Positions 20,983 to 26,111 of a DNA stretch of 64,000 nt are shown piece after piece (the first letter of the stretch is position 1; every line of letters begins with the position of its first letter). The notes below the pieces were generated by a model that did not search any database, was not told where the DNA came from, and saw only the letters and a program-made list of their open reading frames with translations. A program made the translations under genes and the position numbers. Source of the stretch: Candidatus Marinacidobacterales bacterium (GTDB taxonomy: Bacteria > Acidobacteriota > Vicinamibacteria > Marinacidobacterales > DATDRI01); assembly GCA_965219415.1 (NCBI GenBank), contig CBDCNP010000002.1, positions 1,312,001-1,376,000 on the forward strand. The letters are read 5' to 3'.

Positions 20983-23481
20983 TCACCGAAGACTATTGGC
21001 GACGCCTTTCACGGTCTCCGCGAGCGACTCGAGTCGAGCCTTGTCGCGTTCCATCGCCTCGTTGCGATCACGCTCGAGCTCGGTTGCGAACGTGTCTAGC
21101 TCACCCGAAGTTCGACCGCCGTCTGCCGTGCCGCCGGCGAGGATCTGCTCGGCACGGTCGAGCGCTTCCGTCAACGCCTCTGCCCTTTCGGCCGTGATCG
21201 CGTGGCTTCGCCCAAGCTGGTCCAGGTACGCCCGCGCCACAACGGGGCTCGCCGGCCAGTCGATCCGCCGCTGCTGTTGCGCGTTGACGACGTCCGGGGC
21301 GACCAGTAACGCAGCGCCGAGCTCGTTCTGCGAGAGGTACTCACTCGGCAAGAGTCTCAGCACGTCGAGGCCGCGGGCGATCTCCGTACCGTAGATGAAG
21401 CCGTTGTACCAGTACGCCGACCAATGGCCCGCCATGATGAGCTTGTTGGCATCGACCGGGCCGCGGTCGAAGAACGCGATCTCAACCGGTCTCGAGGAAT
21501 CAGTGAAATCGAAGACGGAGACGCCGCCTTGATACCAGGCCTGAACCATGATGTCGCGCCCCGGGACGGGCACGAGAGATCCGTTGTGGGCCACGCAGTT
21601 CTCCTCTTCGGTCTGTGGGGCCGGCAACTTGAAGTAGCTTCGGAACTCCATTTTGCGATCGACGATGTCGAAAATCGCATTCGCTCCCCACTGCTTGGGA
21701 TCGGATGCTCGACAGCGGGGACGCATCCCCCCGCCCCATTCGTCCGTGAAAATCACTTTGGTACCGTCGTTATTGAACGTGGCGGAGTGCCAATAGGCGA
21801 AGCTCGGGTCGACCACTTGGTCGAGCCGGACCGGATTCACCGGATCGGAGATATCGAGGAGGATGCCGTTTCCAGAGCACGCCCCCGCTGCCAAGCCCAT
21901 CTCAGGAAACACGGTGATGTCGTGGCACTGGTTGGTCTCGGAAGTCTTCTGCGTGCCCGGCCCATGGTCGCCTCCCTTCCACAAACCGGCGATCACGCCA
22001 GAATTGGGATCCGCAAAGATGCGCGGGCGGCCTACGATCCGCGCCTCCTCCGGTTTCGCCAATGGAATTTGGATGACGTCGATGCTGAATAGAGCGGTGT
22101 TCTCATCCGCGCCCGGACCCGCGTCCGAGCACCCCGCGAGCTCTTCTCCAGAGCGCACCGAGCCCGTGCCGGAACCAAAGACATAGACGTTGCCCTCGTC
22201 ATCGGGGTCGGTCACCACGGTGTGCGTGTGCGAGCCTCGGCACGTTTGGACTGCGGCCACCTGCTTCGGGATCCGCACGTCGCTGATATCGAAGATCCGG
22301 ATCCCACGGAAACGCGCGTCGCTCACCGGCTCCGCCACTCCCTGAAGACCACAGTCGAGCCGGCCCCTTGTCTGCTCCACCGACATCATTAGCAAGTTGC
22401 CGATGATGGACACATCGCCCTGACCACCCGGGCACACCACGGAGCCAAGAAGCCGTGGCACCATCGGATCCTCGACGTTGTACGTATTGAAACCGTGGAA
22501 ATTACCCTCGAACACAACGTCTCCAGCGAAAGCGAGGTCCGAGTTCGCGAAGTTCAAGAGTCCGGCCCTTGGCGATGGCGGAGAGGGTCCATTCTCCTCT
22601 GCCTCGTCGTCCGTCTCGCCCTCTTTCTCTTCACCCTCCTCCTTCGACTCAGCGAGCGCTTCAGGCTCTTCTTCCGCAGCATCGCGCTCGGGCGGCACGG
22701 GTAGACCCACTGGCGCGTGGGGATCGAAGAAGCCCTCCGGTTTCGGAAGCGTTGCCACCAGCTCCAGGTTGAGCGCCGCTTCACCGGCATCACGAAAGCC
22801 GGCCTTGAGATGGACTCGAGGATCCGAGGAGAGCTCCGCGAGCATGCCCCCCATGCGATCGATCTCCATGCTCTGGTCGGCGATGATGTCGGAAGTGAAC
22901 CCGTAGATGGCCGAATCCTGTGCCGCGCCCTGGTGGGCGAGGAGGTTCTCGACCATGATCAAAGCGCCCTGGTGATGCATGATCATGAGCTCGAGGAACA
23001 GCCGGTCGAATTCAATCGCTCGAGACTGCTCGAGACTGCCCATCTCCTCGGCGGTCAGCATACCCGGCATCAGGACAGCATCATGGGCGTGATGAGCGTT
23101 CACGGCGGTGACCTCCTGGCTGTGTGAACGAAGCCATTCCTGCATCATCTTAATCTCGTCCTCTTGAGAGAGCTCGATGCGTTTCGCGAGCGTGTGTATG
23201 ACCTCACGCTCACTCCGCGACGCGAGGAGCTCGGTCATCTCGAGCGCCTGGGCGTGGTGGGAGATCATCCCTTGCATAAACTTCACGTCGGCCTCGGTAA
23301 ACCGGATGCCAGCGAGATTCGAGGCTTCCTCCGCGGAGATCGTCCGACTGGACTCGCCTGGAGCGCCCGGCTGGACGATTAGGGGCTCGTTCTGGCCCTT
23401 CGCCGTGCCGAACGATAGAAACGTCGCTATGAAGATGATAGTCGCGGCAAACAGCCGGAACCTAGGTTTCTCTCGACTCAT
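20983..23481 (-). CDS. Secreted DUF305 + LVIVD-repeat protein
   Basis: FMQGMISHHAQA and MIMHHQGA (DUF305); CPGGQGDVS, CRGSHTHT, CHDITV, ENCVAHNG (LVIVD propeller). Confidence 0.85.
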   Translation of the reverse strand: MSREKPRFRLFAATIIFIATFLSFGTAKGQNEPLIVQPGAPGESSRTISAEEASNLAGIRFTEADVKFMQGMISHHAQALEMTELLASRSEREVIHTLAKRIELSQEDEIKMMQEWLRSHSQEVTAVNAHHAHDAVLMPGMLTAEEMGSLEQSRAIEFDRLFLELMIMHHQGALIMVENLLAHQGAAQDSAIYGFTSDIIADQSMEIDRMGGMLAELSSDPRVHLKAGFRDAGEAALNLELVATLPKPEGFFDPHAPVGLPVPPERDAAEEEPEALAESKEEGEEKEGETDDEAEENGPSPPSPRAGLLNFANSDLAFAGDVVFEGNFHGFNTYNVEDPMVPRLLGSVVCPGGQGDVSIIGNLLMMSVEQTRGRLDCGLQGVAEPVSDARFRGIRIFDISDVRIPKQVAAVQTCRGSHTHTVVTDPDDEGNVYVFGSGTGSVRSGEELAGCSDAGPGADENTALFSIDVIQIPLAKPEEARIVGRPRIFADPNSGVIAGLWKGGDHGPGTQKTSETNQCHDITVFPEMGLAAGACSGNGILLDISDPVNPVRLDQVVDPSFAYWHSATFNNDGTKVIFTDEWGGGMRPRCRASDPKQWGANAIFDIVDRKMEFRSYFKLPAPQTEEENCVAHNGSLVPVPGRDIMVQAWYQGGVSVFDFTDSSRPVEIAFFDRGPVDANKLIMAGHWSAYWYNGFIYGTEIARGLDVLRLLPSEYLSQNELGAALLVAPDVVNAQQQRRIDWPASPVVARAYLDQLGRSHAITAERAEALTEALDRAEQILAGGTADGGRTSGELDTFATELERDRNEAMERDKARLESLAETVKGVANSLR

Positions 23482-23720
23482 TTAGTGGCCTCCACTCGAT
23501 TTGCTAGCCTATAGCGGCGGGTATTCTCTCACTAAACGGTCCTTTGGTGGTGGAAATTGCGCCGTCCCGATCCCGGAGGACGCGCTCGGAAGCCCACCAT
23601 TTGCACGCCGTCCCTATTTGCCCGCAGGTGGCACCCTCGCATTTTGGCGCCAGGACTCGCTCTCAACCCTCTGGCACGCCGATGACCGCTTCGCGTCCCC
23701 ATACTCGCTTTTATACATTG

Positions 23721-23729
23721 TGATAGTAT
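23721..23729 (+). promoter_or_regulatory. Extended -10 promoter element (TGnTAGTAT)
   Basis: TGATAGTAT in an AT-rich patch just upstream of the structured leader. Confidence 0.45.
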
Positions 23730-23739
23730 AGGGGGCACC

Positions 23740-23833
23740 AACCAGACTTAGTGGGGACCTCTCGTTCACACCCGGTCAATTCGGCCGGCACGATCCCGTC
23801 GCCTCCTCTGAGCCCAATCGAGGAGTGACAATG
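23740..23833 (+). ncRNA. Candidate cis-regulatory structured leader (riboswitch-like)
   Basis: Nested stems CAGA..GGGGAC/GTC..CCTCCTCTG, TCGT/ACGA and CCGGTC/GGCCGG; an alternative CTCCTC/GAGGAG hairpin covers the SD before ATG 23831. Confidence 0.45.
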
Positions 23834-23871
23834 TCTACGGGCCCCACTCTCCACGTCGGCGAACGCATCCG

Positions 23872-25032
23872 TTGCCGATCATAACCGTGCCCCCCCGGAA
23901 CGAAGCGGCGATGTCCGCGCAAACACGATCCAGCGGTGAACACCGGCGAGTCCCAACCGCAATCATCTATTGCGAAGCGAACTTCGGCGCCATCGACGGC
24001 AAGACCGCCAACGGGCTCGTCCGACGCTCGGAGATCTACAAGATCCTCTCGGTCATCGACAGCGAGAAGGCCGGCCTAGATGCCGGCGTGGTGCTCGACG
24101 AGGCGCCGGCCGGCATCCCCATCTGTCGCGACTTCGCCGACGCGCTCGCGCACGCCGGAGATGTACCCGACTACTTCATCCTCGGGTTGGCGCCGGCGAG
24201 TGGCATGTTGTCAACGTACGAGCGCGGCATCGTCCTCGAAGCTTTGGGTCTCGGGATGAACGTTGTGAACGGCCTCCATGAGTTCTTGAACGACGACCCG
24301 GAGTTCGTAGCGGCGAGCGCAGCGAGTAACACAGAGATCCTCGACGTCCGAAGACCCCGTGCCAAGAAGAACCTGCGGTCGTTCAGCGATCGCATCACCC
24401 AGGTCACCTGCCCGCGAATCGCCGTGCTCGGCACCGACTGCGCCATCGGCAAACGCACCACCGCTAACATCCTGACCTGCGCCCTCAACGATCGCGGCGT
24501 GAAAGCGGTCATCGTCTACACCGGCCAGACCGGCTTGATGCAAGGAGCCCGCTACGGCGTTGCGCTCGATGCCGTGCCGTCGCAGTTTTGCTCGGGTGAG
24601 TTGGAAGCCACCATCCTCGAAGCGTTCGAAGCCGAGAAACCCGACGTGATCATCATTGAAGGCCAAGGCGCACTGAGTCACCCCGCCTACTCGACCTCGT
24701 CCTTGGTGCTCCGAGGCAGCCGCCCCGACGCCGTCGTGCTGCAGCACGCACCGGAACGGGCCCATCGCTGCGACTTCGAACAGATGGTGATGCCGACGGC
24801 GGCCACCGAGATCAACCTCATCCAGACCTTCTCCGACACGAAGGTCATCGGCCTCACAATCAACCACGAGAACATGACCGAGGCGGAGGTCGACGCGGCC
24901 ATCACGCTGTATGAGCGCAAACTCGGCATCCCCGCCACCGATGCGCTGACCCGCTCACCCGAGCGCCTGGTGGAGATGGTCCTTGCGGCGTTCCCGGAGC
25001 TCGAGGAGAAACTGAGCGACAGCGCACGGTGA
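23872..25032 (+). CDS. DUF1611 domain protein (DgcN-like)
   Basis: DGKTANGLVR, NGLHEFL, GTDCAIGKRTT, TGQTG, EGQGALSHP; start uncertain (ATG 23831 is out of frame; ATG 23911 is in frame). Confidence 0.85.
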   Translation: MPIITVPPRNEAAMSAQTRSSGEHRRVPTAIIYCEANFGAIDGKTANGLVRRSEIYKILSVIDSEKAGLDAGVVLDEAPAGIPICRDFADALAHAGDVPDYFILGLAPASGMLSTYERGIVLEALGLGMNVVNGLHEFLNDDPEFVAASAASNTEILDVRRPRAKKNLRSFSDRITQVTCPRIAVLGTDCAIGKRTTANILTCALNDRGVKAVIVYTGQTGLMQGARYGVALDAVPSQFCSGELEATILEAFEAEKPDVIIIEGQGALSHPAYSTSSLVLRGSRPDAVVLQHAPERAHRCDFEQMVMPTAATEINLIQTFSDTKVIGLTINHENMTEAEVDAAITLYERKLGIPATDALTRSPERLVEMVLAAFPELEEKLSDSAR

Positions 25033-26111
25033 CCGCGCCGCGACTGGAGATCGACCTCGACAAGATCCACCACAACGCCCGAACACTGGTCGAATTGTTG
25101 GCCCAGCGTGGTATCTCGGTCACAGGCGTCACGAAGGCGATCCTCGGCTCACCCGAGATCGCCGGCGCCTTGCTCCGGGCGGGCGTGAGTGCGCTCGGCG
25201 ACTCACGCATCGAGAACATCGAAGCGATGCGTCATGCGTGCGTACCGGCGTCGATGACACTCATCCGCTCGCCGATGCTCAGCCAGGCGGAACAGGTCGT
25301 AACGCACGCCGACGTGAGCTTCAATACCGAGCTCGATGTCATCAGCAAGCTCTCGTCCGCCGCGCAGGCTGCGAGGCGGACGCATGGGATCGTGCTCATG
25401 GTCGAGCTTGGAGACCTCCGTGAAGGCATCATGCCCGGCGACCTCGAGAAAACCGTGCGCGAGACGCTTCGCTTCCCGAACATCGCGCTCAAAGGCATCG
25501 GCGCCAACCTCGCCTGCCAGAGCGGAGTGTCGCCCGACCCCAAGAATATGGCCGAGCTCTCTGCGCTGGCCGATTCGACCGACGCGACCTTCGGCCCGAC
25601 GCTCGGCATCGTCTCCGGGGGCAACTCCGGTAACCTCCAGTGGGCGCTCAGCGGCGCAGACACCGGGCGGATCAACAATCTCCGCTTGGGTGAATCGCTC
25701 TTGCTCGGACGCGAGCCACTCCATCGTCAACCGATCGACGGGCTGCGCACCGACGCTATCCAGCTCATCGCCGAAGTGATCGAGTCGAAGGTCAAACCAT
25801 CACAGCCTTGGGGCGAGATCGCACAAACCGCGTTTGGGGAGAAGCCACCCGCCACCGATCGGGGCCTCGTCTCGCAGACGATCCTCGCCGTTGGACGCCA
25901 GGACATTGATCCGTGCGGCCTCCGCCCGCCTCCCGGAATCGAGATTCTTGGGGCCAGCAGCGACCACCTCATCGCGGACTCCAGCCGATGCCCCCTGTCC
26001 GTCGGCGCCGAGGTCACGTTTCAACTCAACTACAGCGCGCTCGTCCGCGCTATGACCTCGCCCTTCGTCGCCAAGGTCGTGAAGGTCCAGAGCGGGCCCG
26101 TCCCCGTCTGA
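25029..26111 (+). CDS. Alanine/ornithine racemase-family PLP-dependent enzyme (fold type III)
   Basis: PRLEIDLDKI, GVTK (PLP Lys), ELGDLREG, SGGNS, LRLGE, GASSDH; GTGA overlap with the upstream gene. Confidence 0.87.
   Translation: MTAPRLEIDLDKIHHNARTLVELLAQRGISVTGVTKAILGSPEIAGALLRAGVSALGDSRIENIEAMRHACVPASMTLIRSPMLSQAEQVVTHADVSFNTELDVISKLSSAAQAARRTHGIVLMVELGDLREGIMPGDLEKTVRETLRFPNIALKGIGANLACQSGVSPDPKNMAELSALADSTDATFGPTLGIVSGGNSGNLQWALSGADTGRINNLRLGESLLLGREPLHRQPIDGLRTDAIQLIAEVIESKVKPSQPWGEIAQTAFGEKPPATDRGLVSQTILAVGRQDIDPCGLRPPPGIEILGASSDHLIADSSRCPLSVGAEVTFQLNYSALVRAMTSPFVAKVVKVQSGPVPV

Follow-up and report, generated by a model that had tools for sequence, protein, structure and literature searches.

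What kind of element occupies the space upstream of the DUF1611-racemase operon in Candidatus Marinacidobacterales? We analyzed a 64,000-nucleotide (nt) stretch of DNA from this bacterium (GenBank assembly GCA_965219415.1, contig CBDCNP010000002.1, positions 1,312,001 to 1,376,000 of the forward strand), which is called the window below and whose own numbering is used throughout. In the window, a motif at 23739..23839 on the + strand lies ahead of a gene of the DUF1611 family and a gene for a pyridoxal phosphate (PLP)-dependent racemase. An original prediction had described this region as a riboswitch-like leader with two mutually exclusive pairings. We conclude with high confidence that the motif is a real, conserved translational control element. 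On the sequence evidence, we are mildly inclined to regard it as an orphan translational ON riboswitch candidate that senses a metabolite. For the fuller proposal, namely, a riboswitch of a new class and fold whose four-strand toggle requires the 5' strand to come out of a local hairpin before it can capture the anti-Shine-Dalgarno strand, probably with a D- or L-amino-acid derivative as its ligand, residing in a self-contained, horizontally mobile two-gene cassette found in ∼10 phyla, we consider the chances even.

The motif was the sole window match of a covariance model (R1) built from 70 leaders, with 98.9 bits and an E value of 1e-22. Its parts all lie on the + strand. Just 5' of it is a putative extended −10-like promoter element, TG-n-TAGTAT (23721..23729). 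The toggling strand a (CUUAGUGGGGAC, 23747..23758) can pair either with strand b (CUCGUUCA in the window, CUCGUUGA as the family consensus; 23761..23768), which by RNAalifold prediction is the 3' arm of the local hairpin P0, or with the anti-Shine-Dalgarno (anti-SD) strand c (CUCCUCUGAG, core CCUCCUCUGAG; 23803..23812) to form helix P1. Strand c has a second possible partner in the SD region d (CUCGAGGAG), with which it forms hairpin P3. The Shine-Dalgarno sequence GAGGAG (23820..23825) lies 5 nt 5' of ATG 23831, and either GAGGAG or AAGGAG was present in the alignments. Between strands b and c lie hairpin P2, CCGGUC-AAUUC-GGCCGG (23772..23788), which covariation made the best-supported helix, and an apparently unpaired, highly conserved junction (CACGAUCCCGUCGC; CACGAUCCYGUCGC; 23789..23802) that is a candidate binding core. 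The sequence features named in the original prediction (TG-n-TAGTAT at 23721-29, CCGGTC-AATTC-GGCCGG at 23772-88, CTCCTC within 23803-09, GAGGAG at 23820-25, and ATG 23831) were all present where it had placed them.

A 21-base leader pattern (window 23787-23808, one position free) was searched in a one-genome-per-species collection and matched in 50 species genomes. The carriers comprised 13 Desulfuromonadales-type or "Deltaproteobacteria," 12 Actinomycetota, 10 Gammaproteobacteria or Pseudomonadota, 6 Planctomycetota, and 3 Akkermansiaceae, with one genome each from Pontiellaceae, Lentisphaerales, Krumholzibacteriia, Omnitrophota, and Candidatus Marinacidobacterales (the congener G001) and one without a name. 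The taxon labels are those of the depositors, and we take the carriers to represent ∼10 phyla. Two are cultured according to their records, Malonomonas rubra DSM 5091 and Geothermobacter hydrogeniphilus HR-1. The entire ∼95-nt leader was conserved around the pattern, and all 50 matches preceded DUF1611 orthologues or their broken remains. At 46 loci the SD-linked open reading frame (ORF) was plainly a DUF1611 orthologue; at two others (L037 and L055) the start was unclear, yet the locus aligned with DUF1611 over 350 residues; and in the last two (L043 and L056) the N-terminal peptide of the family was followed by a stop after 26 and 44 codons, respectively.

Independently of the leader, a protein-based scan of metagenome contigs recovered 80 orthologue loci with 66 to 90% identity. 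R1 matched 45 of these at an E value of ≤1e-9 and 49 at ≤1e-3, and it matched none of eight distant paralogue loci from relatives. Motif-free orthologue loci lay inside longer operons, retained remnants of the SD hairpin only, or had too little upstream sequence. The 8.05-Mb home genome contained one real R1 copy, as did each of five genomes from other phyla (one per genome in all six that were searched whole), and BLAST with the leader as query turned up no further copy in the home genome. Within one Actinomycetota order, the leader was carried by 4 of the 151 genomes searched, indicating a patchy distribution. A gene of the Ala_racemase_N family came next after DUF1611 in 51 of the 52 metagenome loci that extended far enough downstream, and the two genes mostly overlapped by 4 nt. 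On the upstream side, 44 of 69 neighboring ORFs were singletons, and the largest cluster had seven members from one clade. The Pfam families of these upstream neighbors included M81 and S51 peptidases, Tn3 transposase, amidase, phosphatases, and TPR proteins, and among them no regulator gene traveled with the DUF1611-racemase pair.

The original prediction had also raised the question of which other gene families carry the motif. A degenerate pattern of the 5' half, with one mismatch allowed, gave 8 matches in 401 genomes from the phylum of genome G041 versus 7 in the reversed control; three of the eight were real leaders, all located before DUF1611. One actinomycetotal genome (G167) carries, in addition to a canonical leader, a weakly matching motif-like leader (30 bits, E value of 8.7e-4; L155/L164, C3:2793-2892) ahead of a zinc-dehydrogenase-like gene. 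In this second leader, strands a and b are retained, as is an anti-SD/SD hairpin with compensatory changes, and the central part differs. A second regulon built on the zinc-dehydrogenase-like gene was considered and rejected, as nine orthologues of this gene have unrelated upstream regions.

Sequence identity to the window was determined for 75 loci. The leader had a mean identity of 0.83, compared with 0.85 for codon positions 1 and 2 of DUF1611 and 0.55 for position 3. Since the leader resembled codon positions 1 and 2 and was far above position 3, recent transfer is not the cause of its conservation. Amino acid identity of DUF1611 across phyla was 66 to 91%. Among 80 distinct leaders, 31 alignment columns were at least 95% conserved and 49 at least 90%; the junction sits among the former, and a 21-mer spanning it recurs in 50 genomes.

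Folding of a lone 181-nt segment of the window gave a minimum free energy of −60 kcal/mol, compared with a mean of −56.45 kcal/mol for shuffled sequences (z = −0.81; 35 of 200 shuffles were as stable). Since the single-sequence fold was at chance level, the evidence for structure is comparative. Helices were counted on a model-guided alignment (A4) of 82 leaders, 80 of them distinct. P2 (23772-77 with 23783-88) exhibited double changes in all six pairs, with 96.8% of cells paired, in agreement with the hairpin of the original prediction. P1 (CUUAG 23747-51 with CUGAG 23808-12, GGGG 23753-56 with CCUC 23803-06, and C23758 with G23801) was 95.0% paired in A4 and 93.2% paired on a plain MAFFT alignment (A3), and 3 of its 10 pairs had double changes: A-U to G-C in three sequences, C-G to U-A in one, and the innermost C-G to U-A in one. 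The outer stem proposed earlier thus stood as a helix with the anti-SD strand, but not in its CAGA (23743-46):TCTG register, which is specific to the window and involves 5' columns that are not conserved. P0 (UUAGYGGG 23748-55 with CUCGUUGA 23761-68), a hairpin absent from the original prediction, was 93.2% paired, with double changes in two of eight pairs; G-C was replaced by A-U in three sequences and G-U by G-C in eight. A TCGT/ACGA stem from the same prediction had no double change and one pair that was unpaired in 11 of 70 sequences; the alignment-based prediction of P0 and the pair counts favor reading its TCGT side as the 3' arm of the local hairpin with CUUAGYGGG. P3 (23803-12 with 23817-25) was 85 to 90% paired and nearly invariant, and in diverged members it persists in other registers (L144 with eight perfect pairs; also L133 and L155). 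In controls with the 3' partner slid by 1 to 3 columns, pairing was 30 to 61%. None of 500 column shuffles reached the observed covariation, although relatedness inflates such figures.

Applied to the untrimmed alignment, RNAalifold recovered only P2 and the local hairpin, failing to detect P1 or the SD hairpin. When all column pairs were scanned for mutual information and double changes, the Desulfuromonadales-type clade dominated the signal, and the scans revealed no credible further helix or pseudoknot and no partner for the junction (23789-23802) or for the UUGAC block, which is also highly conserved. Two pairings picked out by eye, GAC:GUC and GGGA:UCCC, were rejected because they are broken by the common variants UUGAA and CCGGUC. 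Cells with G-U far outnumbered those with A-C in P2 (99 versus 4), P0 (273 versus 5), and P1 (152 versus 9), which argues for selection on the + strand RNA and is unlike what a DNA palindrome or an RNA from the opposite strand would leave. Because strand a is common to P0 and P1, and strand c to P1 and P3, the leader forms a four-strand toggle in which either a pairs with b and c with d, or a pairs with c. Both of the exclusive anti-SD pairings claimed by the original prediction were conserved, as was, in silico, the translational ON-switch layout of one anti-SD strand with two competing partners; conservation and covariation in the orthologous leaders, on which that prediction depended, were both found. 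The loop of P2 varies in length among near-identical strains, an extra T at 23779 (AAUUUC versus AAUUC) being present in G001 and in metagenomic contigs from three sequencing runs (X5, X7, and X11).

We next consider where the motif lies in its transcript. In 52 of 78 distinct leaders a TANNNT hexamer ended 11 to 22 nt 5' of the CUUAG of the motif, compared with a mean of 13.9 and a maximum of 24 in 200 shuffles, and 32 of the 52 −10-like elements carry a TG extension. Such an element just 5' of the motif would place the motif at the 5' end of the transcript, with a start predicted from the sequence a few bases past the −10-like element and ∼10 nt before the motif. This predicted start agrees with the original prediction, for which a start downstream of the structure would have been a difficulty. 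A consensus scan of the region found no promoter and no + strand terminator, and the lack of a terminator fits translational control. Most of the leaders without a −10-like hexamer are of the Desulfuromonadales type. In these leaders, a conserved palindrome of the GTGGGAAT..ATTTCCCAC type replaces the hexamer 20 to 45 nt upstream of the motif, and its arms vary in step between loci (L019, L022, L024, L032, L034, L038, L049, L054, L059, L061, L066, and similar ones). This palindrome may serve a clade-specific regulator as its operator or form an additional hairpin on the 5' side.

Which state would the leader adopt by default? In the thermodynamic ensemble, the SD was paired with the anti-SD at a probability of >0.5 in 68 of 80 leaders (median, 0.92; window, 0.999), and the P3 hairpin had a median energy of −11.7 kcal/mol (window, −13.8 kcal/mol). 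With enforced helix sets, OFF was more stable than ON in 53 of 82 leaders (median, 3.5 kcal/mol), although a P3 that falls into another register in one clade makes this projection of OFF and ON energies crude. These models suggest an element that is OFF by default and ON when the fold made of P1, P2, and the junction is stabilized. According to the mechanism that we propose, positions 23739-23839 would be the 5' untranslated leader of the DUF1611-racemase mRNA, acting as a cis-regulatory RNA that governs translation initiation. By default, strand a (CUUAGYGGGG) would pair with strand b (CUCGUUGA) and strand c (CCUCCUCUGAG) with the SD region d (CUCGAGGAG), burying the ribosome site (OFF). In the alternative state, the long-range helix P1 between strands a and c would enclose P2 and two highly conserved junctions and leave the SD free (ON). 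A small molecule tied to the amino-acid chemistry of the operon might bind the P1-P2-junction fold and thereby favor ON. Its likeliest identity would be the substrate of a probably catabolic D/L-amino-acid pathway; as the operon looks catabolic, induction by substrate would be the logical direction of switching. Within this scheme, the switching direction, the ligand dependence, and the ligand identity are what we infer. Osmotic or ionic sensing, which had been suggested originally, receives no support from the gene context. Three features characteristic of riboswitches were found in silico: a covarying, structured 5' untranslated region (UTR), association with the genes of one pathway in distant taxa, and an alternative pairing that controls the SD.

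Several observations weigh against the riboswitch interpretation. OFF and ON differ little in energy and not uniformly so, with ON being favored in 29 of 82 leaders by the crude projection, and the transcript start is a prediction. Alignment A4 was fitted to P1 and P2 and is hence biased toward both helices. Abundant covariation was restricted to P2, and the strands of P1 and P3 were nearly invariant, so that their pairing rests mainly on conservation and a few compensatory changes. An invariant 21-mer was used to choose the 50 genome loci, and sequences that are related do not count as independent. Among the 80 orthologue loci, 31 had no R1 match at an E value of ≤1e-3 (26 had none at ≤1, and 5 had values of 0.012 to 0.26). 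Four leaders with an Actinobacteria label (L020, L040, L064, and L067) lack strand b and P2 and have another hairpin farther 5'; four others (L053, L081, L072, and L082) are without most of the 5' half and retain the junction and the SD hairpin. These two reduced forms may be decayed copies or minimal functional versions. Several Actinomycetota leaders have altered junctions or insertions in P2. All of these variants weaken a strict aptamer view. Finally, an enzyme of the operon that binds its own mRNA would account for the same data.

This last explanation is the one that survives best beside a metabolite-sensing riboswitch. DUF1611, the racemase, or a ubiquitous host protein might bind CACGAUCCYGUCGCC and shift the anti-SD toggle with no small molecule involved. 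Since the two-gene cassette has no conserved neighbor, any dedicated trans factor would be one of its own enzymes, and autoregulation would be economical. The junction, moreover, is conserved as sequence with no pairing partner detected, as is often the case in protein-binding sites, and variants without P2 or strand b keep both the junction and the anti-SD/SD hairpin. However, neither protein has a recognizable RNA-binding domain (Pfam assigns only DUF1611_N, DUF1611, and Ala_racemase_N), and a host factor would need to be conserved across all of these phyla. Wide conservation before one metabolic operon is typical of metabolite aptamers, and the ∼31 near-invariant positions over ∼10 phyla correspond to this usual signature. 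We regard protein binding as unlikely, if still worth serious consideration.

A ligand-independent tuner appears less probable again, and we give it little weight. Here the anti-SD hairpin would damp or time translation, act as an RNA thermometer, or protect the 5' end, with the upstream strands assisting its folding. This would be consistent with the predicted sequestration of the SD in most members and with the four leaders (L053, L081, L072, and L082) that keep little beyond the anti-SD/SD hairpin, but a simple hairpin needs neither ∼60 further conserved nt, nor a covarying P2, nor a second partner for the anti-SD strand. Known thermometers hold the SD in a weak stem that contains mismatches, with family motifs and little conservation beyond it. 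The hairpin in question is stable (median, −11.7 kcal/mol; window, −13.8 kcal/mol), and no ROSE, fourU, or other thermometer family was matched in Rfam. The idea of a DNA-level element, i.e., a sigma-70-type promoter made of TTGACA and CACGAT with the intervening inverted repeat as a repressor operator, takes its appeal from the consensus TTGAC(A), from a downstream CACGAT that keeps A2 and T6 of a −10 element, and from the repeat between them, but is highly improbable given a spacer of 19 nt in 71 of 80 leaders (range, 15 to 21 nt, with larger insertions in some), a repeat that keeps its pairing via G-U rather than A-C (99 versus 4), which is sensible only for + strand RNA, window sequences of TTCACA (23765-70) and CACGAT (23789-94) at which the consensus promoter scan found no site, and a −10-like element in a better position, 5' of the complete motif, in 52 of 78 leaders. 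A promoter of this type would have its hexamers 17 ± 1 nt apart, and an operator would be conserved symmetrically, whichever the strand.

A metabolite-sensing ON riboswitch candidate remains our preferred interpretation of the leader. The ATG at 23831 opens a frame of only 17 codons (MSTGPTLHVGERIRCRS; 23831..23884 on the + strand, with its TAA stop at 23882-84), which had been described as either an upstream ORF or a frameshift error. In the congener G001, whose orthologue shares 87% amino acid identity with the DUF1611 protein of the window, the leader aligns with that of the window almost base for base from the −10-like element on, whereas the intergenic DNA farther 5' does not. There, the ATG behind GAGGAG opens a 399-residue ORF that runs straight into DUF1611, and ATA stands at the position of ATG 23911 in the window. 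When the N terminus of the G001 protein was compared with the window by tblastn, it matched in three successive frames: MST, then APLSTSANASVADH, and then NEAAMSAQ..., which leads into the domain. The 17-codon frame at the ancestral DUF1611 start is therefore the broken, frameshifted N terminus of DUF1611 and not a conserved upstream ORF. Compared with G001 and with the X7 and X11 contigs, the window carries a single additional base in each of two runs, GGG at 23839..23841 and C7 at 23890..23896 (both + strand).

The region was further compared with Logan contigs of four runs from four studies (X1, X5, X7, and X11), of which X1 is possibly the source sample of the window. Both extra bases were present in the X1 and X5 contigs, the latter also having the T inserted after 23779. 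The X7 and X11 contigs were near-identical to the region, with three other letters changed and one base fewer at both 23839 and 23890. Four runs of RNA type, three of them recorded as RNA, contained only 5 to 6% of the sampled words. Because it occurs in contigs of two studies, the frameshift probably represents a real strain allele rather than an assembly error. Of the earlier alternatives, the frameshift held and the upstream ORF did not, and an error is probably not its cause. A leader-peptide attenuator or regulatory upstream ORF was likewise rejected, as the frame is part of a continuous long ORF in G001, X7, and X11 and the motif contains no ORF 5' of the SD. In the frameshifted allele, translation of DUF1611 from ATG 23911 would need reinitiation or an independent weak start. 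Orthologues have ∼10 to 45 residues before the conserved TAIVYCEANFG block, and because this length varies, the extension is dispensable in principle. Across phyla, the Pro/Ser-rich N-terminal extension (10 to 45 residues) carries a loose motif, M-S-x-x-P-x-S-x-S-x-N-A-[PS]-x-[AS]-D, directly after the start, where Desulfuromonadales-type loci have MLVVPPVVSLNAPE. The corresponding nucleotides (window 23834-23910; the first ∼20 codons in L019-L068) are also similar, with UCG..GAACGCA. This segment may act as a signal in the peptide or belong to the RNA element.

In the window, the operon itself consists of two genes on the + strand. The DgcN-like DUF1611 gene, taken from the first in-frame ATG past the breaks, extends over 23911..25032 (Pfam DUF1611_N and DUF1611). 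The second and last gene, at 25029..26111, encodes an Orr-like PLP racemase (Pfam Ala_racemase_N), and its start overlaps the DUF1611 stop by 4 nt. Against the NCBIfam models, the DUF1611 protein scored 172 bits for DgcN (NF041892) and the racemase 359 bits for Orr, the cut-off being 480 in each case; by sequence, both are homologues, not equivalogs, of DgcN and Orr. The PDB entries closest to the DUF1611 protein (2g0t, 7xrj, and 2obn) are all uncharacterized proteins and hence give no clue to a ligand, and a PDB sequence search with the racemase returned no match. Convergent G6PD and HAD genes lie downstream of the operon. On its upstream side, a gap of 350 nt separates it from a divergent gene on the − strand (20983-23481) for an 832-residue DUF305 protein. 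In this protein, Pfam assigns only a 150-residue domain near the N terminus (residues 65 to 214), and the other ∼600 residues are without a match.

Some features of the neighborhood recur at other loci. In seven Desulfuromonadales-type loci, an M81 (MlrC-like) metallopeptidase gene is divergent from the cassette (e.g., L034:54-1238), and in four Microthrixaceae/Acidimicrobiales loci an S51 peptidase gene lies upstream on the same strand (e.g., L029:117-1421). These peptidase neighbors hint at a link with the breakdown of unusual peptides. In a metagenome-assembled genome labeled Pseudomonadales, a Tn3-family transposase gene (L043:1972-2970, − strand) is located ∼400 nt 5' of the leader, and the DUF1611 frame stops after 26 codons. 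The layout of this locus fits a mobile, sometimes decaying cassette.

Widespread new riboswitch classes tied to one enzyme pair are now rare, and each so far has revealed a sensed metabolite. The candidate described here is short and very well conserved and has a clear read-out in the release of the SD, and its occurrence in the cultured strains M. rubra DSM 5091 and G. hydrogeniphilus HR-1 makes it directly testable. The identity of a ligand would at the same time provide the substrate of an uncharacterized, highly conserved enzyme pair, which perhaps takes part in the turnover of D-amino acids in marine and sediment bacteria. The patchy spread among unrelated neighbors also makes the leader a tidy example of a regulator that moves together with its target.

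How does the leader compare with known systems? Against Rfam 15 (4,227 models), the whole window gave no match at the gathering threshold, and the region 23650-23950 gave none at an E value of ≤10 under permissive filters, in keeping with the original statement that no characterized riboswitch class was recognized. A full-text literature search yielded nothing on the leader and no report of an RNA leader for dgcN; supplementary motif lists lay outside this search and could hold the motif. By sequence, the element is thus a candidate for a new family within a known kind, i.e., cis-regulatory 5' UTR RNAs and riboswitch candidates among them.

With the glycine, lysine, and glutamine (glnA/Downstream-peptide) riboswitches, the leader shares a position in cis ahead of genes of amino-acid metabolism and a wide phyletic spread. 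By analogy, these would be its nearest functional counterparts if the ligand is an amino-acid derivative, but none of their Rfam models matches the leader. To our knowledge, DgcN-like DUF1611 and Orr-like racemase genes do not belong to the regulons of known amino-acid riboswitches. The DgcN-DgcA pathway of D-glutamate combines a DUF1611-family N-acetyltransferase with a racemase. Passages that describe it as a route from D-glutamate to L-glutamate mention no RNA element (PMC10845958). As in that pathway, the first gene of the operon is a DgcN homologue paired with a racemase; unlike there, the partner is a PLP-dependent Orr-like racemase instead of DgcA, and the DgcN score of 172 bits is far under the equivalog cut-off of 480.

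In its logic, the leader can be set beside a well-known translational switch. In the add adenine riboswitch of Vibrio vulnificus (RF00167), the 3' strand of P1 also serves as the anti-SD, and the switch is OFF by default and works with no terminator. Both elements are located in a 5' UTR, P1 and the SD hairpin exclude each other in both, and both lack a terminator and are OFF by default, the latter as predicted here. They differ in that they have no similarity of sequence or structure, the three-way junction of the add riboswitch contrasting with a two-helix P1-P2 arrangement with large conserved junctions in the leader, which in addition has the extra local hairpin P0 competing for the 5' strand.

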